From Escherichia coli (GTDB lineage Bacteria > Pseudomonadota > Gammaproteobacteria > Enterobacterales > Enterobacteriaceae), in assembly GCF_030013595.1 (NCBI RefSeq), contig NZ_CP122768.1: a stretch of 64,000 nucleotides of DNA; one strand, 5' to 3'. A model generated the notes under the pieces. It saw only the letters and a program-made list of their open reading frames with translations. It was not told the DNA's origin and did no database searches. This document shows positions 4,001 to 44,800 of this stretch, one piece after another (the stretch's first letter is position 1; each line of letters opens with the position of its first letter). The position numbers and the translations under genes are program-made.

Positions 4001-4934
4001 GGGTTGCCAGTTCAGGCAGCGTTTCTTGCTCCGCAATATGAATACCCAGCGGCAAAACGTTGAGCACGGGTCCGGTAGCCGTCAGCGCCGCCGAGCCCAG
4101 TCGACGCATAAAGATAAATCCGGCGGCGTAGTCCATGCGATTGCACAATCGCCCCAGCCATAAGGCCGTCAGCGCAAGGGCTAAATCGGTACGCTGCACA
4201 CCTGAAAGTTGCGTAGCCAGCTGGCGGAATTCCCCGTCGGTAAATTCCAGTTTCAGGCGCAAAATATCTGCCGAAGCGCTGCGCCCCGGTAAAGGTGCCG
4301 GAGAAAGTGACGCGGGCGGCGGCAGTTGACGACGCTGTTCCGCCCAGAATGCCGCATCACGCTGCCAGGCTTCGCTTTCGCGGTATTGCTGGTACTCCTC
4401 CACTACATCAGCGAAAGGCGTAAACGGCGAAGCAGGCGTTGGTTCGCCACGCAGCCATGCGCAGTAAATATTGGCGATCTGGCGAGTAATGGCCGGGAAA
4501 CTGAAGCCATCGACCAGCAAATGGTGATAACGCTGATACCAGTACCAGCGGTTATCCGCCACCTGATTGAGCTGATGAAAGACCAGCGGTTTGCCGCTGT
4601 CGGCACGTAGATTTTGCTGTAAATCCGCCTGCATTAATGCCTGCGCAGTACCGTGCGGATCAATGTTGGTTCGCAGGTCGATAATTTCTGGTAGTTCAAA
4701 CGTCAGCGCATCATCGACCCATTGCCAGACTTCGCCGTTATCTTCCGTAAAACGCATCCGCAGCGTATCTGCTTGCGCTAATCCGGCAACCACCGCGCGG
4801 GCCAGTAATGGCGCATCAACCTCTCCGGTTAACTCAACGTAATGCGCCACGCTCCAGGCGGAGGGTAAATCCGACAGTTTTTCTGCCATCCAGATGCCGG
4901 GCTGTGCGGCGACCAATGGTAAATGCTGGCTCAT
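1053..4934 (-). CDS. entF: Enterobactin synthase component F (NRPS: condensation, adenylation, PCP, thioesterase domains)
   Basis: ORF 1053..5072; true start taken at internal ATG 4934 (MSQHLPLVAAQPGIWMAEKL...), giving 1293 aa. AMP-binding motif FTSGSTGRPKGV, PCP motif GGHSL and C-terminal thioesterase-like region are visible. Confidence 0.95.
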   Translation of the reverse strand: MSQHLPLVAAQPGIWMAEKLSDLPSAWSVAHYVELTGEVDAPLLARAVVAGLAQADTLRMRFTEDNGEVWQWVDDALTFELPEIIDLRTNIDPHGTAQALMQADLQQNLRADSGKPLVFHQLNQVADNRWYWYQRYHHLLVDGFSFPAITRQIANIYCAWLRGEPTPASPFTPFADVVEEYQQYRESEAWQRDAAFWAEQRRQLPPPASLSPAPLPGRSASADILRLKLEFTDGEFRQLATQLSGVQRTDLALALTALWLGRLCNRMDYAAGFIFMRRLGSAALTATGPVLNVLPLGIHIAEQETLPELATRLAAQLKKMRRHQRYDAEQIVRDSGRAAGEEPLFGPVLNIKVFDYQLDIPGVQTQTHTLATGPVNDLELALFPDEHGDLSIEILANKQRYDEPTLIQHAERLKMLIAQFAADPALLCGDVDIMLPGEYVQLAQINATQVEIPETTLSALVAEQAAKTPDAPALADARYLFSYREMREQVVALANLLRERGVKPGDSVAVALPRSVFLTLALHAIVETGAAWLPLDTGYPDDRLKMMLEDARPSLLITTDDQLPRFADVPDLTSLCYNAPLTPQGSAPLQLSQPHHTAYIIFTSGSTGRPKGVMVGQTAIVNRLLWMQNHYPLTGDDIVAQKTPCSFDVSVWEFFWPFIAGAKLVMAEPEAHRDPLAMQQFFAEYGVTTTHFVPSMLAAFVAPLTPQTARQNCATLKQVFCSGEALPADLCREWQQLTSVPLHNLYGPTEAAVDVSWYPAFGEELAQVRGSSVPIGYPVWNTGLRILDAMMHPVPPGVAGDLYLTGIQLAQGYLGRPDLTASRFIADPFAPGERMYRTGDVARWLDNGAVEYLGRSDDQLKIRGQRIELGEIDRVMQALPDVEQAVTHACVINQAAATGGDARQLVGYLVSQSGLPLDTTALQAQLRETLPPHMVPVVLLQLPQLPLSANGKLDRKALPLPELKAQAPGRTPKAGSETIIAAAFSSLLGCDVQDADADFFALGGHSLLAMKLAAQLSRQFARQVTPGQVMVASTVAKLATIIDGEEDSSRRMGFETILPLREGNGPTLFCFHPASGFAWQFSVLSRYLDPQWSIIGIQSPRPSGPMQTAANLDEVCEAHLATLLEQQPHGPYYLLGYSLGGTLAQGIAARLRARGEQVAFLGLLDTWPPETQNWQEKEANGLDPEVLAEINREREAFLAAQQGSTSTELFTTIEGNYADAVRLLTTAHSVPFDGKATLFVAERTLQQGMSPERAWSPWIAELDIYRQDCAHVDIISPGAFEKIGPIIRATLNR

Positions 4935-5149
4935 TGCGCCTCCTGCAACTGGGTGAAATTCGACGGTGTCAGAGTACGCCAGTGGGCTTCCAGCCACTGC
5001 TGGCAGGACGCCTGTGACTGCGGCTGACACACAACGTCCCAGCCTGCCGGTAAGGCGCATTGTTGCGGCCACAGACTGAATTGCCCCTGCGCATTGCGCA
5101 AAATGTAAAACGCTCCCTGCGGATCATCGAAGGGATTACTGAATGCCAT
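4931..5149 (-). CDS. ybdZ: MbtH-like protein YbdZ (enterobactin synthesis accessory protein)
   Basis: 72-aa product MAFSNPFDDPQGAFYILRNAQGQFSLWPQQCALPAGWDVV...; stop overlaps entF start (ATGA-type coupling). Confidence 0.9.
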   Translation of the reverse strand: MAFSNPFDDPQGAFYILRNAQGQFSLWPQQCALPAGWDVVCQPQSQASCQQWLEAHWRTLTPSNFTQLQEAQ

Positions 5150-8876: not shown

Positions 8877-8974
8877 GCCGGATGCGGCGTGAACGCCTTA
8901 TCCGGCCTACAAAAATCTTGCCAATTCAATATATTGCAGGACCACGTAGGCCTGATAAGCGTAGCGCATCAGGC
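8877..8974. repeat. BIME: two inverted REP elements flanking a short spacer
   Basis: gccggatgcggcgtgaacgccttatccggcctac ... gtaggcctgataagcgtagcgcatcaggc; classic REP consensus in opposite orientations between fepA and entD. Confidence 0.7.
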
Positions 8975-11101: not shown

Positions 11102-11254
11102 CTACTTCTTCGGTTCGTAAGCGAGAACAGCCTTAAACTCAATATTACGTTCCTTCACCGTAAACTCACACAGCGAGTCTCCGACCAGAAGCGTAAATCC
11201 CAGTACCGTCAAACACAGCACTATGACTGCCACAAGGGCATATTTCGTCAGCAT
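11102..11254 (-). CDS. hokE: Hok-family small membrane toxin (type I toxin-antitoxin)
   Basis: 50-aa product [50 protein letters not shown] embedded in a longer leader ORF (mok-like, 11102..11398). IS186 lies 21 bp downstream. Confidence 0.85.
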
Positions 11255-11680
11255 GTTTATATTGCCTCCATGCGAAGAAGGGACTACCATCCAAATTGTC
11301 TGGTTTGGAGTGGCAGCCCCAGGGTTGATAGAAATATCTCCTGGGGCTTCATCTTTCCAGACCTCAGAGTAAACCTGAAACCGGAAAGCTTCAGGCACCC
11401 GCCGTTATCTTACCCTTCCTCAGCAAAATAGCTGTTTATTTATACAGTGAGTCCTGTTTCGGACTTCTCACTCCTCATTTGATCAACTGAAGCTGAACCC
11501 GTTTTTTTCTGCATGCCTCAATCGTCAAAATTCTTCGCCACCAGCCAGCTCTGCCATAACTTGTCACATTGCAGAAGTAGCCAAACTTCTTCAGTCACAA
11601 TCAGTTCACCATCACCAAAAAAAGAAACATTCCAGAACTTCCGCATCTCGCCCAGTCGCTCCCACTTCTATACTGAATAG

Positions 11681-34468: not shown

Positions 34469-35953
34469 ATGCGAAAAATAATTACTCATTTCAAAGTTGT
34501 TTTAACGTTACTTCTACCAGTAACCGTATCTGCCCAGCAGATACAGTGGCAATCCTGTATGGCCAGTCAATTCAACCACTGGTTTGGTGAGGAAAAACCG
34601 TCTCCTGACTTACTATGTGGTTATTTGTCTGTTCCATTAAAATATACAGACACAGGCGGAGATGCTTCTTATGAAAAAAAATCACAAGTCAAACTAGCGT
34701 TGACAAAATTGCCGGCAAAAAGCAAGCATAAAGGAAGTATCCTGATAATAAGTGGTGGTCCCGGGTTACCAGGCATAAATCCTTATATTAACTTTGACTG
34801 GCCAGTCACAAATCTTCGTGAGTCATGGGATATTATTGGATTTGATCCTCGAGGCGTCGGACAGTCCACTCCGACAATAAACTGCCGGCAATCAGATACA
34901 GAGACTCAGGAAAACATAACCGAAAAGCAACAAGTATTAAATAAAATTAATGCCTGTATCCATAATACCGGAGCCGAAGTCATTCGCCATATCGGCTCTA
35001 ACGAGGCTGTATACGATATTGATCGTATTAGGCAAGCCTTGGGGGATAAACAACTGACAGCCGTGGCGTATTCGTATGGAACTCAAATTGCAGCCTTATA
35101 TGCAGAACGTTTTCCCTACAACGTAAGATCTATCGTTCTTGATGGAGTCGTCGATATCGATGACCTGGAGGACAACTTCACATGGCAACTCAAACAGGCA
35201 CAGAGTTATCAGGAAACGTTTGATCGCTTTGCATCCTGGTGTGCGCGTACAAAAAGTTGCCCGCTTTCTTCAGACAGAGATAAGGCAATAACTCACTTCC
35301 ATGAGCTATTATCAAAATTACATCACAAACCTTTATTAGACAGTAAGGGAGAAAATATATCTTCAGGTGAACTCATATCATTAACAACAGACCTTCTGCT
35401 ATGGCGTTCATCATGGCCAACCCTTGCAACTGCCATACGCCAGTTCTCTCAGGGGATTGTCAGTAATGAAATTGAAACTGCGCTCAGTGCTCCGATAGCC
35501 TCAGAAGAGTCAAGCGATGCTTCGGGGGTAATCCTCTGTGTAGATCAGGGGGATGAGCAATTAACACCAGAAGAGCGAAAATCCCGAAAAGACGCTCTTG
35601 CGAATGCCTTCCCGGCTATTAACTTTGACAATGGACGTTCCGATTCACCTGATTTTTGTGAATTATGGCCAATACATAGCGACCTGAACAAAACTCGCCT
35701 GAAAAATACTGTTCTGCCCTCTGGTTTACTGTTTGTAGCACACAAATACGACCCAACAACGCCCTGGATTAATGCCCGTAAGATGGCAGAGAAATTTTCC
35801 AGCCCGTTACTAACAATAAATGGTGATGGGCATACATTAGCTCTCACCGGAGTTAATTTATGTGTAGATAAAGCAGTTGTACATCACCTGATCACTCCAC
35901 AAAAAATAGAAAATATATACTGCCCAGGAAATTCTGAAGCAGAAATACAATAA
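34469..35953 (+). CDS. Secreted alpha/beta-hydrolase, S33 (tripeptidyl-aminopeptidase-like) family; prophage cargo
   Basis: 494-aa ORF with N-terminal signal peptide (MRKIITHFKVVLTLLLPVTVSA), nucleophile elbow AYSYGT, AT-rich codon usage. Family call is from motifs only. Confidence 0.6.
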   Translation: MRKIITHFKVVLTLLLPVTVSAQQIQWQSCMASQFNHWFGEEKPSPDLLCGYLSVPLKYTDTGGDASYEKKSQVKLALTKLPAKSKHKGSILIISGGPGLPGINPYINFDWPVTNLRESWDIIGFDPRGVGQSTPTINCRQSDTETQENITEKQQVLNKINACIHNTGAEVIRHIGSNEAVYDIDRIRQALGDKQLTAVAYSYGTQIAALYAERFPYNVRSIVLDGVVDIDDLEDNFTWQLKQAQSYQETFDRFASWCARTKSCPLSSDRDKAITHFHELLSKLHHKPLLDSKGENISSGELISLTTDLLLWRSSWPTLATAIRQFSQGIVSNEIETALSAPIASEESSDASGVILCVDQGDEQLTPEERKSRKDALANAFPAINFDNGRSDSPDFCELWPIHSDLNKTRLKNTVLPSGLLFVAHKYDPTTPWINARKMAEKFSSPLLTINGDGHTLALTGVNLCVDKAVVHHLITPQKIENIYCPGNSEAEIQ

Positions 35954-35975
35954 TTTCAAAATATTCCGCTATTTG

Positions 35976-36020
35976 CTCCCAATGCAAAACATATATTGCA
36001 TTGGGAGCATATTCATATTT
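35976..36020 (+). terminator. Intrinsic terminator after the hydrolase gene
   Basis: Inverted repeat ctcccaatgca / tgcattgggag with 10-nt loop, followed by catattcatattttt. Confidence 0.6.
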
Positions 36021-36136
36021 TTGTTATTCTTGTATGAAATCGTCTCATGTACACGGTCCTTTTTTCGCCGAAAACTGATATTACTTTAATCAAAAGTTGA
36101 CGTGCCAGATTCGAAGTAAATTTATAAAATATCAAA

Positions 36137-36442
36137 TCAATATACATTTTGCACCTTCGAGATAGTAATGGCTGTTACTGTAACATGGGTTACAAACAGC
36201 TTCATACCCAGAGCTACTGATGTATCAACACGATTCAACAATACCCGATATTTATTCCATGCCTCCAGCAACGATCTTTCTTCCTCCGTTGCGATTTCCA
36301 GATCTACAGCATCCTGCAGTGGCGCAATATACTCACTGAATTCCTGGATGTAGAACTGTGTGGTGACGGTCTTCCAGCCATTCGGCTCCTGCTGTATCGA
36401 AGCATACCAGGCTATTTCAATATCGCTATGCTGCGGCAGCAT
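36137..36442 (-). pseudogene. tfaX: Tail fibre assembly protein fragment (Tfa C-terminal region fused to unrelated sequence)
   Basis: 101-aa ORF; residues ...[39 protein letters not shown] match the C-terminal conserved block of the full Tfa at 37222..37806; the rest does not. Confidence 0.6.
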
Positions 36443-36498
36443 TTAACCCCTTGTAATTCATCGCCATAATTGATTTAATTCACAAATAAAACTATAAC

Positions 36499-37167
36499 AT
36501 GGTGAAATTAATGAAAAAAAACACAGATGATGGGGCTAAAATTTACACACCACTTACCCTAAAGCTTTATGACTGGTGGGTTTTGGGAGTATCAAATCGG
36601 CTTGCATGGGGATGTCCTACAAAGGAACACCTTCTTCCACACTTTCTGGAACATTTAGGTAACAACCATCTGGATATTGGTGTTGGAACTGGGTTTTACC
36701 TTACTCACGTACCTGAGAGTAGTCTGATATCTTTAATGGATTTGAACGAAGCTAGCCTGAACGCGGCATCTACAAGGGCTGGGGAATCAAAAATTAAACA
36801 TAAAATTAGCCATGATGTTTTTGAACCTTATCCCGCGGCGTTACATGGTCAATTTGATTCCATTTCCATGTTTTACCTTCTTCACTGCCTGCCTGGAAAT
36901 ATATCTACAAAAAGCTGTGTAATACGCAATGCGGCGCAGGCCTTAACTGACGATGGAACTCTATACGGAGCCACAATTCTTGGCGATGGAGTTGTGCACA
37001 ATAGCTTCGGTCAAAAACTGATGCGCATTTACAATCAGAAAGGCATCTTTTCAAACACAAAAGATTCCGAAGAAGGCTTAACACATATACTCTCAGAGCA
37101 TTTCGAGAATGTTAAAACCAAGGTTCAAGGTACTGTAGTAATGTTTTCCGCTTCAGGGAAAAAATAG
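36499..37167 (+). CDS. ybcY: Class I SAM-dependent methyltransferase (YbcY-like prophage cargo)
   Basis: 222-aa ORF with motif DIGVGTGF (SAM-binding motif I); encoded opposite to the flanking tail-fibre genes; start codon uncertain. Confidence 0.65.
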   Translation: MVKLMKKNTDDGAKIYTPLTLKLYDWWVLGVSNRLAWGCPTKEHLLPHFLEHLGNNHLDIGVGTGFYLTHVPESSLISLMDLNEASLNAASTRAGESKIKHKISHDVFEPYPAALHGQFDSISMFYLLHCLPGNISTKSCVIRNAAQALTDDGTLYGATILGDGVVHNSFGQKLMRIYNQKGIFSNTKDSEEGLTHILSEHFENVKTKVQGTVVMFSASGKK

Positions 37168-37221
37168 CATCCAACCGCAGCACGTTCTTGCTTAAGACGT
37201 GCTGCGGCATAATCCCAATGA

Positions 37222-37806
37222 TTACTCCCTGACAGGGTTCGTAGGCCACTCAATATCAGGTGCAGTTGATGTATCAACACGGTTCAGCAACACCCGATAC
37301 TTTTTCCAGGCTTCCAGCAACGAGGTTTCTCCCTCCGTTGCGATTTCCAGATCTGCAGCATCCTGAAGTGGCGCAATATGCTCACTGGCTACCTGCATCA
37401 GGCTGTTTTTTGTTTCTTCCGCCTCCCGGATCCGGAACAGTTTTTCTGCTTCTGCATCTTTCACCCAGGTTGTGCCGTTCCACTTCTGAAACTCCCCTTC
37501 CGGGGATAACCAGGTGACATTTTCCGGTAATGAGCCGAGTTCAGAAATAAATAACGCGTCGCCGGAAGCCACGTCATAGACGGTTTTACCCCGATGGTCT
37601 TCAACGAGATGCCACGATGCCTCATCACTGTTGAAAACAGCCACAAAGCCAGCCGGAATATCTGGCGGTGCAATATCGGTACTGTTTGCTGGCAGACCTG
37701 TATGAGGCGGAATATATGCGTCACCTTCACCAATAAATTCATTAGTTCCGGCCAGCAGATTATAAATTTTTATGGTCCGTGGTTGTTCACTCATTCTGAA
37801 TGCCAT
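37222..37806 (-). CDS. tfa: Tail fibre assembly protein (lambda Tfa-like)
   Basis: 194-aa [42 protein letters not shown]... with C-terminal conserved block; start overlaps stf stop. Confidence 0.9.
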
Positions 37807-40800
37807 TATGCAAGCCTCACAATATAGTTAAATGCGATGTTTTTGACGGTGTTTTCCGCGTTACCAGCAGCGTTAACGGTGATGGTGTGTCCATGTGAGC
37901 CAATCGCAACCGAGTGCGTATGAGCACCAATACCGACAGTATGTGCGTGTGCACCTGCGCTTGCAGCAGTGCCGGACAGTGAGTGGGTATGTGCGCCAGC
38001 AGATGATGTTGCATAGTTTTGATTATGCACAACAGACAATCTTGTTGATGCACTACCAGCACCGGAGTTAGCACTAGCCGTGTTCACGTTGGCTAGTGAG
38101 TGTGTGTGTGCTCCAGCCGAGTTTGTAGAGCCGCTCACACTGTGTGTATGTGCCCCGGTGTTATTCGTAGATTTAGTGCCGTAATCAAACGACGATGTGG
38201 TTTTCGTACCCAAATCCGTACTTGATGCGCTGGCGCTGTGGGTGTGCGATTTAATGCCGTCCTGTTCCTGAGACAATACGGCACGACCACTGGCGGGCTT
38301 GCCCTTAATCGTCCAGCCACGCATATCAGGGATCACGCCTGACGGATAAGCAACTGCAAGTTTCGGGTATGCAGATTTGTCAAAAGTCTGCCCCTGCATC
38401 AGGGCATAACCAGACGGAACGGTATCTGATGGCCACGGAATTGGTGCGCCAACTGGGTAGCTTTCTGGTGGAAGATTTTTCGAGGTATAAACTTCTGCCC
38501 AGCCTTCCTCAAAACCATAGCCATCTCTTGAGGAACGGTAGAACAGACCTCCATTTCTGTAATGCGCCTTCATCTGCAGGGTCCGGCAACTTCCGACTCC
38601 GGTATAGAAGTTAACCAGAATATAGCTGTCGCCAGAGCGGGTGACATTGTAAGCGCCTGATTCGGCATTCCAGGGAACGCCACCATCCGCATCGGCATAT
38701 GTATCCGTTGCCCTTCTGGCAAAAGCAGCCACATGCGCGGCGGTTAAAGTAATATCTTTTGAACCATCAAACTCAACCCCAGAAACCAGTCTTGGCGTTT
38801 GCAGCTTTGTTGCTGTCAATGCGTTACCGTTCAGACTTGCAGACAGTTTGGTTCCAATAACCAGTTCGCCGGTTGCGTTATCAATAGCAAACGGTCTTAA
38901 TGTATTCCAGCCACCATAAACATCACCTTGATTGGTAAGCAGCAGGTAAGTTTTAGCGCCATCATTACGCCATAATGCCCCATACTCCCCACCTATCATT
39001 CGAATCTGATTACCACCACGCGCTACAATTTCGTCTGTGGCAAAAAGTTTTTTGCACGACAAGTTATCGTTAACGATTAACGAATGGGACTCATAAAAAC
39101 CACGCCCACTCTTAAAATCAAGGATAACGTCCGCCGCGATACATTCAGTCGCTGGAATTGTTGCCCCAAACTTATAGGTCGTATCATTAACAACGAGATC
39201 AGCACCAGGTGCGGATATTGACAGGCCATCTTCGATAAACGCAAAAACAGGGAAAGCAGCGCCATCAACATAGAACACAGAGCGCAAATCATCGCCCTTA
39301 TTACTCATCATTATTGAGTGGATGGCTCGTTCATTGTTTTGATATTGCCAGAACATTCCATAAGCATAACGCCCCCTGTCAGTCCAGCCACCAGGCATAA
39401 CAAATCCGTTAAACTCGCAGTTATTCATCGGATCGCCTGCGGTTCGCGTTGCCGTGGTGATAATGACCCTTGATGCCAGTTCGCTTACTGAGCCAGCAGA
39501 ACGCATAACAACAACAGGGTAATATTTTCCAGATGTTGCACCTGCAGGAGCGTTAACCCGCACATAACGCATACCACGCTTATCAGCAAAGTCTGTTTTA
39601 CTGACCGCGTTAATGTTGTTCAGGAAGCGTCCCTTATCGGGTATATCAGCGCCGTTCTGGTCTTTCTGCAGACGTTTCTCTGCATTGTCATAGGCTGATT
39701 TTACTGACTTTGGCGTTGCCGCCAGCGTTTCAGACGTACTGTTGGTCGCACTGCTGAGCTGTACTATCCCCTTTTTCGTCGTACTTGCATCCTCAAGCGC
39801 CACGGCGGATGCAATATCCTCTGCCCGTTTAGCTGCTGTCTCGGCGCGCGTTGCCGCGGATTCCGCCGTACTTTTGCTCTGTGCTGCCGCTGTCGCACTG
39901 CCAGCAGCCTCTGTCGCCTTCGTGGATGCCGTCGTGGCGCTGCCCTTCGCTGCTGACGCCTGTCTGGTCGCCTCATCTTTTGAAGCAGACGCAGATGATG
40001 CCGATGACGCCGCCGAACTGGCGGACGATGCCGCTGCCGTTTTTGAGGATTCTGCGCTGGTTTCCGACGCTTTCGCGTTCGTTTCGGATGTCTTCGCTGC
40101 GGATGCAGACCTCGCTGCTGCGCTGGCCTGTTCAGCGGCTTCGCCAGCCTTCGTTGTGGCTGTTGAAGCGGACAATGCAGCGCTTTCTGCCGATTTTCCG
40201 GCGGCGGTGGCACTGGCTGAGGCCTGCCCGGCACTTGTTGACGCTGCACTGGCAGACGACGCAGCCGCTGTTTTTGAGCCTGCCGCAGCTGAGGCGCTCT
40301 GTCCCGCTGCCGTTTCAGAAGACCTGGCGTTCGTCTCGGACGTTTTTGCCGCCTTCGCGGAATTTCCTGCCGCCGTTGCCGAGGAAGCTGCACTACTGGC
40401 GCTCGAGGCTGCGCTCGTTTCTGATGATTTTGCAGCCTCTTTTGAGGCCGCCGCATCCCGGGCCGAGGTCGCAGCTTCTGATGCCTTCGTGGTCGCGGTG
40501 GATGCAGATGTGGCTGCTGATTGTTGTGACGCTGAAGCATTCGTTTCTGACGTTTTCGCCGCACCGGCACTGGTGGCCGCCGCGCTTTTTGAGGACTCTG
40601 CAGCGGCAGCACTTTTTGATGCTTCAGTGGCCTTTGTTGATGCCGTTCCTGCGCTGGAAGACGCTGACTGAGCCGACGAAGCGGCCTGTCCGGCTGACGT
40701 GCTGGCTGCGCGTGCTGAGCCTGCAGCATCAGTCGCATGGGTTGCCGCCTCACGGGCAGATGTGCCGGCATCGCCGGCTGACTTCTTCGCGGCTGCCGTG

Positions 40801-41168
40801 TTCTGTGCCACCACGGACGCGTTACGCGCCACCTCTTCCACCATCAGCTCAAAACGGCGCAGTGCCTCCGGACGGGCATCATCCTCCGTCATGGCACCGA
40901 GAAAATCATTCAGCGTACCGGGTCGGGAATCTTCATACACTGTGATAGTCCCGGCATGTGACGGCGGGAATCCTTCCACCAACAGAATAACGCTGTACTG
41001 ACCGTACTCAACGTCCATACTGTAACGCCCGGCTTCATCCGGATTTTCTGAGGCCAGCGTGTTCACCACCACCGTGGTGCTGTTACGTTTTGCTTTCAGC
41101 TGGATTGTGCAGTTCTGTACCGGTTTTCCTGTGCCGTCTTTCAGTACACCTGAAATCTTTACTGCCAT
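37806..41168 (-). CDS. stf: Side tail fibre protein (lambda Stf-like), with long Ala/Ser-rich region and C-terminal HxH repeats
   Basis: ORF 37806..41174; begins (MNM)[31 protein letters not shown]...; about 480 aa of A/S/T-rich low complexity; C-terminus has repeated GAHTHS motifs. Confidence 0.9.
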
Positions 41169-41232
41169 ATTCACCCCACAAAAAAGCCCGCCTGAACCGG
41201 CGGGCTGTCATAACACTGTGTTACCTGGCTAA

Positions 41233-41832
41233 TCAGAATTTATAACCGACACCCACGATGAACCCGTCAGTGCGCCAGTCACCGCTGCCGGAGCCTTCAT
41301 AAGCGACGTCAACGGCCACGGATTCGGTCGGGTTAAACTGCACGCCAGCTCCCCACGCCAGAGACGTGTTGCTGTGGCGACCGTCATCACTTCCGGTCAG
41401 CACATCGTGCGTTTTCCCCTTGTTGTCAGTTACGCGGATATAATCTCCGGAGAAAGTCGACACACGGCTGTAAGCCATACCCGCCATCGCATACGCGCTG
41501 AACCATTCATTCACGCGCACAGACGGCCCCGCCATCACGCTGAACCAGCGGTTACGCACGGAATCTTCATGCCAGCGGGTATCGCTGTAATGCGTTTTTT
41601 GCTCATCTTCAGCGTTGGTATAACTGAATGACGTAATCAGCCCCAGCGTGTCCGTAAACTCATAACGGTATTTCACGTTAATCCCGTTCAGATTATCGCT
41701 GCCGGGAGCGTTCGTACGGGCATGAAGATACCCTGCGCTCAGTGTGGCCTGCTGCTCAGACGCCCATGCAGGCGCACCGGATACGGCCAGACAGATGGCT
41801 GCGGACAAAATGGCTGCACAAACTTTACGCAT
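41233..41832 (-). CDS. lom: Lom outer-membrane protein (Ail/Lom family; prophage moron)
   Basis: 199-aa ORF with signal peptide MRKVCAAILSAAICLAVSGAPAWA and beta-barrel-like C-terminus ending GYKF. Confidence 0.9.
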   Translation of the reverse strand: MRKVCAAILSAAICLAVSGAPAWASEQQATLSAGYLHARTNAPGSDNLNGINVKYRYEFTDTLGLITSFSYTNAEDEQKTHYSDTRWHEDSVRNRWFSVMAGPSVRVNEWFSAYAMAGMAYSRVSTFSGDYIRVTDNKGKTHDVLTGSDDGRHSNTSLAWGAGVQFNPTESVAVDVAYEGSGSGDWRTDGFIVGVGYKF

Positions 41833-41899
41833 AATTACCTCTCGCTTTTCTGCAATAAAAAAGGCGCCATTTCTGGCGCCCGTATATGGGTTATAAAAT

Positions 41900-44800
41900 T
41901 CAGCTGATACTGATGCCTGCGGTGGCTTTCTTCATCACCACAACCAGCAAATCGCTGATACTTGCTGTGGGATACCAGTTATTTACCAGCCATGCTGACA
42001 CCGAAAACTCCAGTGTCATGTGACCGTGACCGGCAGGCATATCAATAACACCACTGTAAATCAGCGTATTATCCAGCGCGGTACGGTTATAAATTTCAGC
42101 ACCGTTTTTCCGTACTATCAGACGGCATGAGGAGTAAATATCAGTATGCTCTTTCTCATGTTTAGCGCCGCTGAATGCCACCGCCGGAATAACAATCTGC
42201 CGGTCAAACGGCTGATCGTCATAAACCCTGACGGTGATGGTCCCTGATGGCCACCGTTCCGGTGCACGGGAGTCCCGGGGGAAAGCTTTGCCCACTGTTT
42301 TAACGAGATCGCCTTCAATCTGGTTCGCGGACAGTTTTCCCAGAACCCGACAGTTCTCGTTAATCGTGACGTTGTTGAGCGTCCCGGAGTTCGCATTCAC
42401 GTTACCGCTGATATCGGCATTTTTCGCCGTCAGCCGCCCGTCCGGTGTCAGGGAAAATGCCGGTGGATTTCCGCCGCTGGTAATGGTGGGAGCCGTCAGG
42501 CGTTTCAGGAACACGTCGTTCATGAATATCTGATCGCCCTGACCAACAAACATCGGCTTTGTGTTGCCATTCGCAGGATTAATCATCGCAATCCGGTCAG
42601 CAGCCAGAAGCACCTGACTCTGCATACCTGCTGGCGTATTCTCAATACCGGCTCCGATACCCGCAATATAAAGGCGTCCGTCCTTCATCTGCTGCAGTTT
42701 CACGGCCCACATGCTGTTCAGGTTATTATTTGTATCAACCTGAACTTTCTGTATCTGCTGGATTGCCGCGCTCTGATTTTCCAGTTTCTTATTGACGGTC
42801 TGTGTGATTTCATTGCTGACATCCGTAATGGACGTCCTGATTTCAGCCAGGTCAGGCGCAAGCTGATCGTTATCAATCTGCGTCCACAGCTCCTGAGCCA
42901 GATGGGTTTTCCCTATCTCGCCTTTGAAAAAATCCAGATAGCCGGATGCGTCATCACTCGGCTGACCGACAGCCTCCACGAATGCCGATTTGCCAACAGT
43001 GTTCACACTGCGAACGTAAAAATAATAATCATGGCCCGGCTTAATATTGATACTGGCAGCTATCCAGTACAGCGCCGTACCAAGATAGCGCGCTGTGGTT
43101 TCAACCTGCCTGATATCCGCAATCCGCTTTTCCGAGAACCAGAACTCAAACTGTACCGTCGGATCATAAACGGCAAGATGCGGCGTGGCGGTTATCTGAA
43201 AATAGCCCGGCGTCAGCTCAATCCGCGACGGTGCTGCCGGTGCGGCAATCCGGAACGATACCGATGCCGGATCGCCCTGCTGTCCCCACGCATTTACCGC
43301 CCGGACTGTCAGCCTGTAGTTCCCCAGCGCCAGCTGCCTGAAGCGGTATGTGGTTTCCGTCGTCCGGGCCGTGCTGACCAGCCGCTCACTGCCGTCATCG
43401 GCGGCCACGGTCAGGCGAAGCATAAAGCTCACACCCTTCACCACCTTCGGCGTGTCCCAGCGCGCCAGCACCTGATACTCCCCACTGTCTGCGGTGACTT
43501 CTGCGGTCAGGTGCTGCACCGCTGGCGGCGTGACACCATTCACCGTGCCGCTCTGGTCGCCGTCAAAGTGCGCCCCGTTATCCACGATGGCTTCTTTCTC
43601 CGGTACATGCTGCACGGCAGTGATGGCATACGTGCCGTCATCGTTCTCACGGATACTCACACAGCGGAACAGGCGCTGGCGCAACGTCGGCAGCTTCAGC
43701 CCCCACACGCTGTATTCTGCAACGCCGTCAGGAACACGGCTCACTTTCACCTTCACACCGTCGGTGACGGACTGAACCTCCACGCTGACCGGATTGCCAC
43801 TTCCGTCAACCAGGCTTATCAGCGTGGTACCGGAGGATGGCAGCGTGATTTCACGGTCGAGCGTCAGCGTCCGGGTCTGGCTGTTCACCGCCAGCACGCG
43901 CCCGCCGGTGCTGATACCGGCATAGTCATCATCGCAGATTTCAATGACATCGCCCGGCACATGGCGAAGCCCTTCTGCGCCCACGCTGAAATCCACGGTC
44001 TGCGTTTCCAGCAGTTCCGTTTTAATCAGCCACAGCCCGGCGCGGTGTGCCTGCCCCCGGCTGGTACAGCCAAAGGCATCCATCTTCGTAACATTACGAC
44101 CGTAACGGGCAATGGCCTGCGTATCTTCAACAAGCTCTGTCGCCGTCTCCCAGCCGTTATCCGGGTCAATCCAGTTCACCTCAACGGCATTATGGCGGTC
44201 CTTCAGGGCGCTGAAGCTGTAGCGGAACGGCGCGCCATCATCCGGCATCACCACATTACTGCGGTTATAGGTCCACACCTTATCCGACGGTCGGTCCTGC
44301 ACGAACGTCAGCGTCTGCCCGTTCCATACCGGCATACAGCGCATCGCCGAGCAGAAATCGCTGAGCACATCCCACGCCTTACGTTGTGTGGTCAGCCAGG
44401 CATTACAGGTGATGCGCGGCTCCGTGCCGCCAAAACCGTCCGGCACCGACTGGTCGCAGTACTGGCCGATGACATACAGCGCCCATTTATCCACATCTGC
44501 CGCACCAAGACGTTTCCCCATGCCGTAGCGCGGATGGGTCAGCATATCCCACAGACACCAGGCCATGTTGTTGCTGTATGCTGGCTTAAACGTTCCATCC
44601 CAGATACCGCTGTATTGCCGCGTCTGCGGGTTATAGTTCGACGGCACCTGCAGAATGCGCCCGCGCAGATGATAATTACGGCTCACCTGCTGGCTGCCGA
44701 ACTGCTCCGAGTCCACCTGCACGCCGACCAGTGCCGTGTTCGGGTAGCACTGTTTCACATCTATAATTTCGGTGTATGACGACCAGAGCGTTTTGTTCTG

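Follow-up and report, generated by a model that had tools for sequence, protein, structure and literature searches.

The closest described arrangement to the locus analysed here lies in the cryptic prophage DLP12 of Escherichia coli K-12, where the order tfaD-ybcY(pseudo)-tfaX-appY-ompT-envY is annotated. In that strain, tfaD has lost its 5' part and is joined to a remnant of a terminase, the annotation lists ybcY as a pseudogene, tfaX ends in a stop at codon 62, and appY follows as the next cargo gene. RefSeq likewise has a class I methyltransferase next to a tfa pseudogene annotated as partial, so the arrangement is already known and carries little weight as a discovery. On ybcY and tfaX, the literature yielded lists at genome scale, one promoter-SELEX entry and a promoter-island study of appY, and no functional work. 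Other systems resemble parts of the locus: lambda carries cargo directly downstream of stf-tfa in its b region, the Rac/Qin-type order is stfR-tfaR-pinR-ynaE, and the Mu G/Gin, P1 C/Cin and e14 P/Pin switches place two tfa-family sequences downstream of one tail-fibre gene. According to the summary of North et al. 2019 in PMC9608196, Tfa proteins combine a conserved C-terminal domain, responsible for trimerisation, with a variable N-terminal domain that binds the fibre.

The locus studied here belongs to a stretch of 64,000 nucleotides of E. coli DNA (hereafter, the window). The region is the right-end cargo ('b-region' or moron) end of a lambda-like prophage in the DLP12 position, adjoining ompT and envY, and it contains an intact tail-fibre chaperone gene, an apparently host-derived methyltransferase passenger and a decaying, chimeric chaperone fragment from an old recombination. 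We consider it highly probable that the whole is to be read in this way, as a prophage cargo end with a passenger cassette, the 3' remnant of an older tfa and a chimeric short ORF. The three ORFs of the preliminary description were all recovered: 36137-36442 (minus strand, 101 aa), 36499-37167 (plus strand, 222 aa) and 37222-37806 (minus strand, 194 aa). The features are as follows, with the evidence for each in parentheses.

36137..36442, minus strand: whole short ORF 'tfaX', 101 aa, chimeric, decaying (PHROG, relatives, PGAP)
36137..36212, minus strand: 3' tail of the short ORF, codons 78-101 (VALGMKLF...), unrelated to tfa, hydrolase-linked flank DNA (alignment of relatives)
36213..36349, minus strand: tfa 3' remnant, codons ~31-77, second copy of the conserved block, itself mosaic (repeat search, Pfam)
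36356..36442, minus strand: first 29 codons of the short ORF, phrog_3893-family N-terminus, not tfa-derived (homology to Citrobacter L015)
36443..36510, plus strand: conserved upstream region of the methyltransferase, 26% G+C (conservation, K-12 promoter match)
36511..37167, plus strand: class I SAM-dependent methyltransferase, ybcY family, 218 aa (Pfam, PHROG, AF2, Foldseek)
37175..37207, no strand assigned: 11-bp G+C-rich hairpin between the convergent methyltransferase and tfa (RNA fold)
37222..37806, minus strand: tfa, tail-fibre assembly gene of the lambda orf-194 type, 194 aa (Pfam, PHROG, nucleotide identity)
37267..37398, minus strand: conserved C-terminal block of tfa (IAPLQDA...NRVDTS), reference copy of the direct repeat (repeat search)

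The intact tfa lies directly downstream of the side tail fibre gene stf (37806-41174) on the same strand, its start overlapping the stf stop at 37806, and the stf-tfa operon ends at 37222. Its product matches the Pfam profile Caudo_TAP (PF02413) with 149.1 bits (gathering cutoff 22.1) over positions 1-130 of 131, which covers the two-domain Tfa architecture, and phrog_105 ('tail fiber assembly') with an E-value of 7e-99; its DNA is 94% identical to tfa of lambda/HK630. This architecture is absent from the short ORF, which reaches 65.1 bits against the same profile and cutoff over positions 75-121 only, with an N-terminus of the phrog_3893 family. Nor is the short ORF directly behind stf, as tfa and an opposite-strand gene lie in between. 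The G+C content is 53.5% in stf, 49% in tfa and 41% in the methyltransferase.

A C-terminal block shared by the two tfa-like ORFs in the same orientation had been noted in the preliminary description, and pairwise nucleotide alignment bears this out. Positions 36218-36349 and 37267-37398 form a direct repeat of 132 nt with 87% identity and a spacing of 1049 nt (blastn E ~1e-40), far beyond chance, and 38 of 51 residues are identical at the protein level (E 1e-22); outside the 132-nt block, the long and short copies have nothing in common. The reference copy falls inside a match to the Rfam family RF02111 'IS009' (37265-37463; 225.7 bits, above the 117-bit gathering threshold), and the short copy matches the same family at 36216-36419 with 108.4 bits, below that threshold. 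The block could be explained by a tandem duplication of the resident tfa, as the title of the preliminary description has it, with later insertion of the methyltransferase between the copies and decay of the distal one, and the direct orientation, spacing and significance of the repeat agree with such an event. However, the short copy is 85–88% identical to every lambda-type tfa, including those of lambda, ev099, PhiR42_1 and other, unrelated lambdoid phages, so its identity to the neighbour is no higher than to the rest. The shared DNA is limited to the family-conserved domain, and the short ORF owes its N-terminus to the phrog_3893 family and its tail to flank DNA linked to the hydrolase. 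In 2G7b the same short copy adjoins tail-fibre modules of a quite different kind, and in Kati and Turner it follows pin. A tandem duplication is thus already largely refuted and, in our view, very improbable. The comparison of sequences points instead to a family-wide conserved C-terminal domain of Tfa proteins, not a local tandem duplicate. A deletion by recombination of the direct repeats should leave a junction of window 35990-36290 with 37340-37640; a search of 5426 E. coli genomes found none with at least 80% of this junction, so present-day recombination of the pair finds no support.

The mapped joints support the earlier suggestion that the short copy is a recombination remnant, a partial 3' piece of tfa; the short ORF as a whole does not stand as a tfa gene, given that its N-terminus belongs to an unrelated phage family, phrog_3893, that travels with the methyltransferase. 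'tfaX' is accordingly a chimeric ORF of three sources rather than a shortened tfa. A Citrobacter sequence (L015) matches 36356-37179 at 91.8% identity without the tfa block, and its 80-aa ORF (4699-4941) has the same N-terminus as the short ORF, a different C-terminus and a phrog_3893 match with an E-value of 8e-38. Full-length genes of this family, about 80 aa in size, are carried by the phages HK225, mEp390 and phiES15 and by Klebsiella/Erwinia phages. The middle part is itself mosaic, as the K-12 type and the window show no differences from 36389 down to ~36264 and then 14 in ~50 nt. The 36137-36212 tail is present in Turner, PhiR29_1 and 2G7b, all with a hydrolase, which in the window is a 494-aa secreted-type alpha/beta hydrolase beside the short ORF; it is absent in K-12, Kati and PhiR68_2, where appY is found instead and the normal tfa 3' end is kept.

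Comparison of relatives indicates that the short ORF was disrupted independently several times: by a stop at W62 in K-12, Kati and PhiR68_2, by a further stop at Q33 in Kati and by a 7-bp deletion, seen directly, in 2G7b, while PhiR49_1 gives a two-piece tblastn match. In the PGAP/RefSeq annotation it is a pseudogene, labelled 'tail fiber assembly protein, incomplete, missing N-terminus'. As it lacks the fibre-binding N-terminal domain, the 101-aa ORF is most likely a non-functional pseudogene. Alternatively, its product might be a small protein with a function, such as a Tfa mimic reduced to the C-terminal domain that forms mixed oligomers with the Tfa of the resident or a superinfecting phage. 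In the window, Turner, ev243, PhiR26_1, PhiR29_1 and PhiR30_1, the ORF is uninterrupted and has a Shine-Dalgarno-like motif, AAGGGG. Its 3' tail varies while the remainder is conserved, and it forms a PHROG family of its own, phrog_2341 (positions 1-87 of 88). RNA polymerase binds the divergent spacer in K-12, and given this sigma-70 binding peak, a small chimeric protein may be expressed. Yet the repeated disruptions, the missing domain and the pseudogene annotation argue against a function, which we regard as unlikely. A low dN/dS relative to the K-12 type (0.02–0.04) was considered as a sign of selection and rejected, since all the differences cluster in the ~50-nt recombination tract at the 3' end of the block.

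The gene between the copies had been described as an opposite-strand SAM-dependent methyltransferase, and this identification holds. Translation probably starts at the ATG at 36511 (218 aa) rather than at the in-frame ATG further upstream, at 36499 (222 aa), and the alignment with phrog_2132 (E 8e-157) begins at residue 5 of the longer form. The product passes the Pfam cutoffs of Methyltransf_12 (37.6 bits, cutoff 30), Methyltransf_23 (28.8, cutoff 27) and Methyltransf_25 (27.7, cutoff 27). Both SAM-binding motifs are present: D55, G57, G59, T60 and G61 of motif I (DIGVGTG) and the post-I acidic residue D77 (MDLN) are invariant in 37 homologues. The AF2 model (pLDDT 90.1, pTM 0.87) predicts an alpha/beta methyltransferase fold, and Foldseek retrieved more than 1400 PDB methyltransferase chains at E<=1e-3, headed by PmtA (8ys9), JHAMT (7ec0), PfPMT (3uj7) and SgvM (8rpr) with TM-scores of 0.55–0.69. 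The best neighbours in sequence and structure share 13–21% identity and act on different small-molecule or lipid substrates. Single-sequence and profile searches of the PDB gave weak matches to JHAMT and UbiG, and no NCBIfam model came near its cutoff; the profile searches thus confirm a class I SAM-dependent family whose substrate class is not assignable from Pfam, NCBIfam or PDB. No family of DNA N6, N4 or C5 methyltransferases was found among the matches in these three databases, and the enzyme is presumably of the small-molecule or lipid type, not a DNA methylase. Membership in a defence system was considered and rejected, the sole PADLOC match being mad2 (E 0.003, 14 bits).

The flanks of the methyltransferase gene are distinctive. 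The upstream region 36443-36510, conserved in five genomic contexts and four genera, contains a candidate promoter, TTGATT-17-TATAAC, at 36470-36498 and an AGGTGA Shine-Dalgarno sequence at 36500-36505. Its two hexamers agree with those of the ybcY promoter given for the ybcY<>tfaX RpoD-SELEX peak of K-12, where H-NS binding is also listed (PMC3946193); a generic promoter scan showed no enrichment. On the other side, the hairpin at 37175-37207 has a folding energy of -23.9 kcal/mol (z -5.6), has no clear U-tract and is likely a terminator. We infer promoter and terminator function for these flanks, and the methyltransferase would be expressed from the prophage.

The methyltransferase is found in 3831 of 5426 complete E. 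coli genomes, and 1128 of the 5426 hold at least 80% of the 1.9-kb region, which also occurs in the isolated phages PhiR29_1, PhiR26_1, 2G7b, ev243, Turner and Kati. Homologues with 56–84% identity are stand-alone chromosomal genes in other Enterobacterales, and for this reason the gene appears to be a host-derived moron. No phage genes were found among the called neighbours of the chromosomal homologues in Enterobacter, Yersinia, Erwinia, Klebsiella, Testudinibacter and E. coli, and these homologues share only the stretch from about 36442/49 to 37138/80 with the window. As looked for in a moron, the gene is present in some and absent from other related phages, and its G+C content deviates. 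Its capture, proposed in the preliminary description, stands in so far as it is a captured foreign gene; capture at this locus does not, the arrangement being old and widespread, as seen in K-12 DLP12 and the 1128 genomes above. An association with a hydrolase or esterase was considered as well, as one lies nearby in the window and in the Enterobacter, Erwinia, E. coli (L019) and Yersinia contexts. None was found in the Klebsiella, Enterobacteriaceae (L024), Testudinibacter, Citrobacter and Salmonella contexts, and the association was rejected as unreliable because it is missing in these five and the hydrolases belong to unrelated families.

Breakpoints were mapped by blastn and direct alignment. 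Lambda/HK630 matches cover only tfa-stf, whereas the cassette is present in Kati, Turner, 2G7b and others. In Ayreon, the body of the methyltransferase is deleted and 36472 is joined to 37132, and the blastn homology of 2G7b ends at 37341, inside the tfa block. In Kati, Turner and PhiR68_2, homology stops exactly where the hairpin does, at 37207, and 1.76 kb with pin and ynaE follow; the hairpin is thus likely a mosaic boundary as well.

Invertible tail-fibre switches are common in this gene neighbourhood, and the second tfa could in principle be an alternative chaperone left by a host-range switch of the Mu G, P1 C or e14 P type. This background agrees with such a relic, and so does the PinQ/PinR-type serine invertase gene located between tfa and the methyltransferase in Kati, Turner and PhiR68_2. 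In those pin phages, though, both pin and the methyltransferase stand between tfa and the short copy, placing the latter outside any segment that could invert, there is no inverted tfa copy, and no relative was found with an inverted stf'/tfa' pair at this position. Within the window, the search for an invertase or crossover sites was negative: tblastn with Kati Pin over the whole window gave a best E-value of 0.14, the only inverted repeat in 33000-42000 is a 26-nt pair with 77% identity located 6.3 kb apart, none flanking the segment, and the hix/gix-like core AAACCNNGGTTT was found 5 times against 2.1 expected, a chance level. The second copy is direct, not inverted, and no alternative stf C-terminus lies beside it. 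The preliminary argument that same-orientation copies speak against an invertible switch is therefore well founded, and we consider a switch relic very unlikely.

From the observed anatomy, breakpoints, distribution, predicted fold class and decay of the short ORF, we infer the following order of events for the mosaic cargo end. A self-contained cassette, consisting of the methyltransferase, its own conserved promoter and Shine-Dalgarno region, the strong hairpin and 29 phrog_3893 codons, would have come to lie downstream of tfa, abutting the 3' remnant of a different, older tfa gene. Of that gene, nothing but the conserved C-terminal trimerisation domain is left. No other part of the tail-fibre modules is as well conserved from phage to phage, and homologous crossovers would have fallen there repeatedly. 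Such exchanges may have stacked or swapped cargo behind the tail-fibre genes: the methyltransferase may be there or have lost its body, pin-ynaE may be there or missing, and either the hydrolase or appY comes next. The 101-aa 'short tfa' would then be a fortuitous in-frame fusion across two recombination joints.

A further, joint proposal, that the ybcY-family methyltransferase is a genuine lysogenic-conversion gene and the Tfa C-terminal block a portable homology 'dock', is possible and at this stage rather doubtful. Under it, a chromosomal enterobacterial gene may have been taken up by lambdoid phages and carried with almost no change into about 70% of E. coli genomes, and the block may serve as a dock for stacking and swapping cargo behind tail-fibre genes. 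As a less likely addition, the chimeric TfaX product could interfere with Tfa trimerisation. The locus offers a worked example of mosaic phage genomes, in which crossovers in a conserved chaperone domain leave fragments and cargo accumulates after them.

Among the known systems, the Mu, P1 and e14 switches differ in that the copies in the window are direct and accompanied by no crossover sites, invertase or alternative fibre C-terminus. The candidate sRNA IS009 matches the sense strand of the tfa 3' region and of the short copy, but the match lies inside an intact protein-coding gene and is read here as a sequence match alone. Lambda resembles the window in its tfa DNA and in carrying cargo directly downstream of tfa; it lacks the methyltransferase and the second tfa fragment, since its match covers only tfa and the stf end. 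The Rac/Qin-type phages Kati, Turner and PhiR68_2 have a tfa with 95% identity and the same methyltransferase and short ORF downstream, but their pin-ynaE segment separates tfa from the hairpin, where the window has 36 bp and no invertase. K-12 DLP12 shares gene order and orientation with the window, 97% nucleotide identity over window 36213-37660, 99.5% in the methyltransferase, and the same short-ORF N-terminus. Relative to K-12, the window has tfa and the methyltransferase intact, a short ORF of 101 codons with a different 3' tail, and a hydrolase in place of appY.

The window consists of E. coli chromosome with a lambda-like (lambdoid) prophage, whose cargo end is most likely the region considered here. 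Its three central ORFs lie at the positions and on the strands given in the preliminary description. Read along the plus strand, the order is as follows, with more tail and head genes beyond the last entry:

32055, envY
33329-34282, plus strand, ompT
34469-35953, plus strand, alpha/beta hydrolase of 494 aa
36137-36442, minus strand, short ORF of 101 aa ('tfaX')
36499-37167, plus strand, methyltransferase of the ybcY family, 222 aa, or 218 aa from a second ATG at 36511
37222-37806, minus strand, tfa, 194 aa, its start overlapping the stop of stf
stf, side tail fibre gene, 1122 aa
41233, lom
41900, J

The two minus-strand ORFs share a block (36218-36349 and 37267-37398) that was described as near-identical, C-terminal and in the same orientation; pairwise comparison indeed gave a direct repeat of 132 nt with 87% identity and a spacing of 1049 nt, while outside it the ORFs have no common sequence. 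At the protein level, 38 of 51 residues are identical (E 1e-22), and 9 of the 17 nucleotide differences fall in third codon positions. Both ORFs match Pfam Caudo_TAP, the long one over profile positions 1-130 of 131 and the short one only over 75-121. In Tfa proteins, a variable N-terminal domain binds the fibre and a conserved C-terminal helical domain mediates trimerisation (North et al. 2019, via PMC9608196). The block is this conserved domain and is therefore the sole stretch hereabouts sufficiently alike between phages for recombination. A local tandem duplication of tfa, as the preliminary description had it, would also produce direct copies, but it is contradicted by their identity, which is no higher than that to the tfa of lambda, ev099 or PhiR42_1 (85-88%), and by the foreign flanks of the short copy. 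What stands of that interpretation is a recombination remnant with a captured gene.

The Rfam family RF02111 'IS009', a candidate sRNA, has a full-length, sense-strand match in the 3' coding part of tfa (37265-37463, minus strand, 225.7 bits) and scores 108.4 bits, just under the threshold of 117, against the short copy (36216-36419, minus strand). The family seems to have been modelled on tfa coding sequence or its remnants, and its status as an RNA gene therefore looks doubtful. In the adjacent stf, the Ala/Ser/Thr-rich region at 39700-40950 contains periodic repeat families of 21-29 nt, and several frames of both strands are open there for more than 300 codons; such extra ORFs are artefacts of repeat composition.

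On sequence comparison, the short ORF is assembled from three pieces of differing origin:

36356-36442, minus strand, codons 1-29, phrog_3893-type N-terminus
36213-36349, minus strand, codons ~31-77, tfa remnant
36137-36212, minus strand, codons 78-101, unrelated to tfa

None of the full-length tfa genes in the phage collection has the N-terminal piece. In a contig of Citrobacter freundii (L015), window positions 36356-37179 have a counterpart with 91.8% identity and the tfa block is absent; the DNA matching 36356-36442 there begins an 80-aa ORF whose C-terminal two-thirds are wholly different from the short ORF, and which is a full-length phrog_3893 member (E 8e-38). Proteins of this family have about 80 aa, and their genes lie in the post-tail region of HK225, mEp390, HK140, phiES15 and phages of Klebsiella, Erwinia and Pantoea. 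The DNA of the third piece occurs only in relatives with the hydrolase, whereas the appY carriers K-12, Kati and PhiR68_2 retain a normal tfa 3' end in its place.

The same comparisons show that the short ORF is decaying. Codon 62 is a stop in K-12, Kati and PhiR68_2, with an additional stop at codon 33 in Kati; in 2G7b the block lacks 7 bp, and the two-piece protein match of this phage recurs in PhiR49_1. A functional TfaX mini-protein, for which one could adduce that several phages keep the ORF intact, with an SD-like motif, and that RNA polymerase binds the spacer, is unlikely because of this repeated inactivation. The low dN/dS relative to the K-12 type (0.02-0.04) was considered as a sign of selection and rejected: the K-12-type and window copies show no differences from 36389 down to ~36264, then 14 in about 50 positions, and no relation past 36213. 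Here two tfa alleles, each having evolved as coding sequence, have crossed over within the block.

Homology between the window and related phages breaks recurrently at a few sites. Two lie within the tfa block, at 37341 (2G7b) and at ~36264 between K-12-type and window-type short copies, and the choice between hydrolase and appY starts at 36213. In phages Kati, Turner and PhiR68_2 the break is at 37207, the end of a hairpin, and a 1.76-kb segment with ynaE or a ynaE-like gene and a PinQ/PinR-type serine invertase (L011 6053-6643, L012 6315-6905 and L013 5002-5592, respectively) sits exactly between the hairpin and the tfa 3' end. No inverted tail-fibre segment is evident near these invertases. 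Phage Ayreon (L014 4002-4350) has lost the methyltransferase body, 36472 being joined to 37132 with both flanks kept; it has a tfa 3' stump directly after stf and no intact tfa annotated. Many lambdoid phages carry unannotated block fragments just after the tail genes. The junction expected from recombination between the two repeats was found in none of 5426 E. coli genomes.

A decayed invertible switch was also considered, and the pin genes of these relatives show that the neighbourhood hosts such systems. Yet the window contains neither an invertase nor inverted repeats, its hix-like cores are at chance level and its tfa copies are direct, in agreement with the earlier argument against a simple switch; moreover, in the pin-bearing relatives the short copy sits past both pin and the methyltransferase.

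The opposite-strand ORF between the copies was correctly recognized as a SAM-dependent methyltransferase: it exceeds the gathering scores of Methyltransf_12, _23, _25 and _11, and motif I (DIGVGTG) and the acidic post-I residue are invariant among 37 homologues. The second ATG is where the PHROG and homologue alignments start. Its AlphaFold2 model (pLDDT 90) predicts a standard class I fold, the nearest solved structures (13-21% identity) being small-molecule or lipid methyltransferases: bacterial phosphatidylethanolamine N-methyltransferase, juvenile-hormone acid methyltransferase, phosphoethanolamine methyltransferase and SgvM, an alpha-keto-acid C-methyltransferase. Profile searches found no link to DNA methylases or known defence systems. 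Stand-alone homologues with 56-84% protein identity occur in Enterobacter, Yersinia, Erwinia, Klebsiella, Testudinibacter and another E. coli locus, with no recognizable phage genes among their called neighbours, and nucleotide homology to these loci extends roughly from 36442/36449 to 37138/37180. The gene has a G+C content of 41% and the DNA upstream of it 26%, compared with 49% in tfa and 53.5% in stf.

Upstream of the start codon of the methyltransferase, some 60 nt (within 36443-36510) are kept in five contexts from four genera, including a putative promoter (TTGATT-17-TATAAC) and an AGGTGA Shine-Dalgarno motif, from which the gene may be expressed. SELEX data for the RpoD holoenzyme (PMC3946193) give the same hexamers for ybcY of K-12, at a peak in the ybcY<>tfaX spacer that is marked as bound by H-NS too. 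Within 36443-36510 (L004, L015, L017 and L019), TTGATTTAATT[C/A]AC is invariant among the sequences from E. coli, Citrobacter, Salmonella and Enterobacter. With a DNA identity of only 69-92% in the coding regions, this upstream conservation hints at a conserved regulatory site. Downstream, the G+C-rich hairpin at 37175-37207 (11 bp, -23.9 kcal/mol, z -5.6) is a candidate terminator. In the C. freundii contig (4307-5996), the 90%-identical methyltransferase has the phrog_3893 gene with a UmuD-like peptidase ORF on one side and dinI on the other, which suggests insertion into a common phage 'SOS-moron' cluster. An association between methyltransferase and esterase was rejected, as it is seen in about half of ten contexts and the hydrolase families are unrelated.

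We infer the following order of events. A methyltransferase of host origin, bringing its own expression signals, would have been gained as a moron beside a gene of the phrog_3893 family. Recombination events, some of them homologous (within the conserved Tfa domain) and some illegitimate, would then have left this cassette with an intact stf-tfa module on one side and the 3' stump of an older tfa on the other, and the cargo further downstream would have been exchanged later. The short ORF of 101 aa would be an accidental in-frame fusion over two joints, devoid of the fibre-binding domain.

Other E. coli chromosomes contain the 1.9-kb region at 100% identity, 1128 of 5426 complete genomes have at least 80% of it, and it occurs in the isolated temperate phages PhiR29_1, PhiR26_1, PhiR30_1, 2G7b, ev243, Turner and Kati, whose genomes likewise include ompT and the hydrolase or appY. 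The methyltransferase alone, at 95% identity or more, is present in 3831 of the 5426, and one genome may have as many as four copies. In PhiR29_1, 2G7b, Kati, Turner and PhiR68_2 (L001, L002 and L011-L013), ompT lies between the integrase/attachment region and the methyltransferase-tfa cargo and is therefore phage-borne cargo, not a fixed chromosomal gene. The hydrolase, carried by 2G7b, ev243, Turner and PhiR29_1, has Abhydrolase_1 and TAP-like Abhydrolase_4 domains and a hydrophobic signal-like N-terminal segment, and matches PADLOC PDLC01094 'C3a206 TAP-like protein' over almost the full length (E 3e-55). Two Rfam matches above the gathering score lie in chromosomal DNA of the window, one to the sok antitoxin RNA of a hok/sok-type locus (11246-11400, minus strand) and one to the ES036 (CssrF) sRNA (8912-8953, plus strand).

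E. coli genomes very commonly have this arrangement, and annotations of it already exist for K-12 and in RefSeq, whose pipeline labels the short ORF 'tail fiber assembly protein, incomplete, missing N-terminus'. No functional studies of ybcY or tfaX were found in the literature, and the remaining interest lies in the substrate and role of this widespread prophage methyltransferase. The K-12 cryptic prophage DLP12 has the same order, tfaD, ybcY (a pseudogene), tfaX, appY and ompT, with envY just beyond the prophage; it is 97% identical to the window across 36213-37660, and appY sits where the window has the 494-aa hydrolase.
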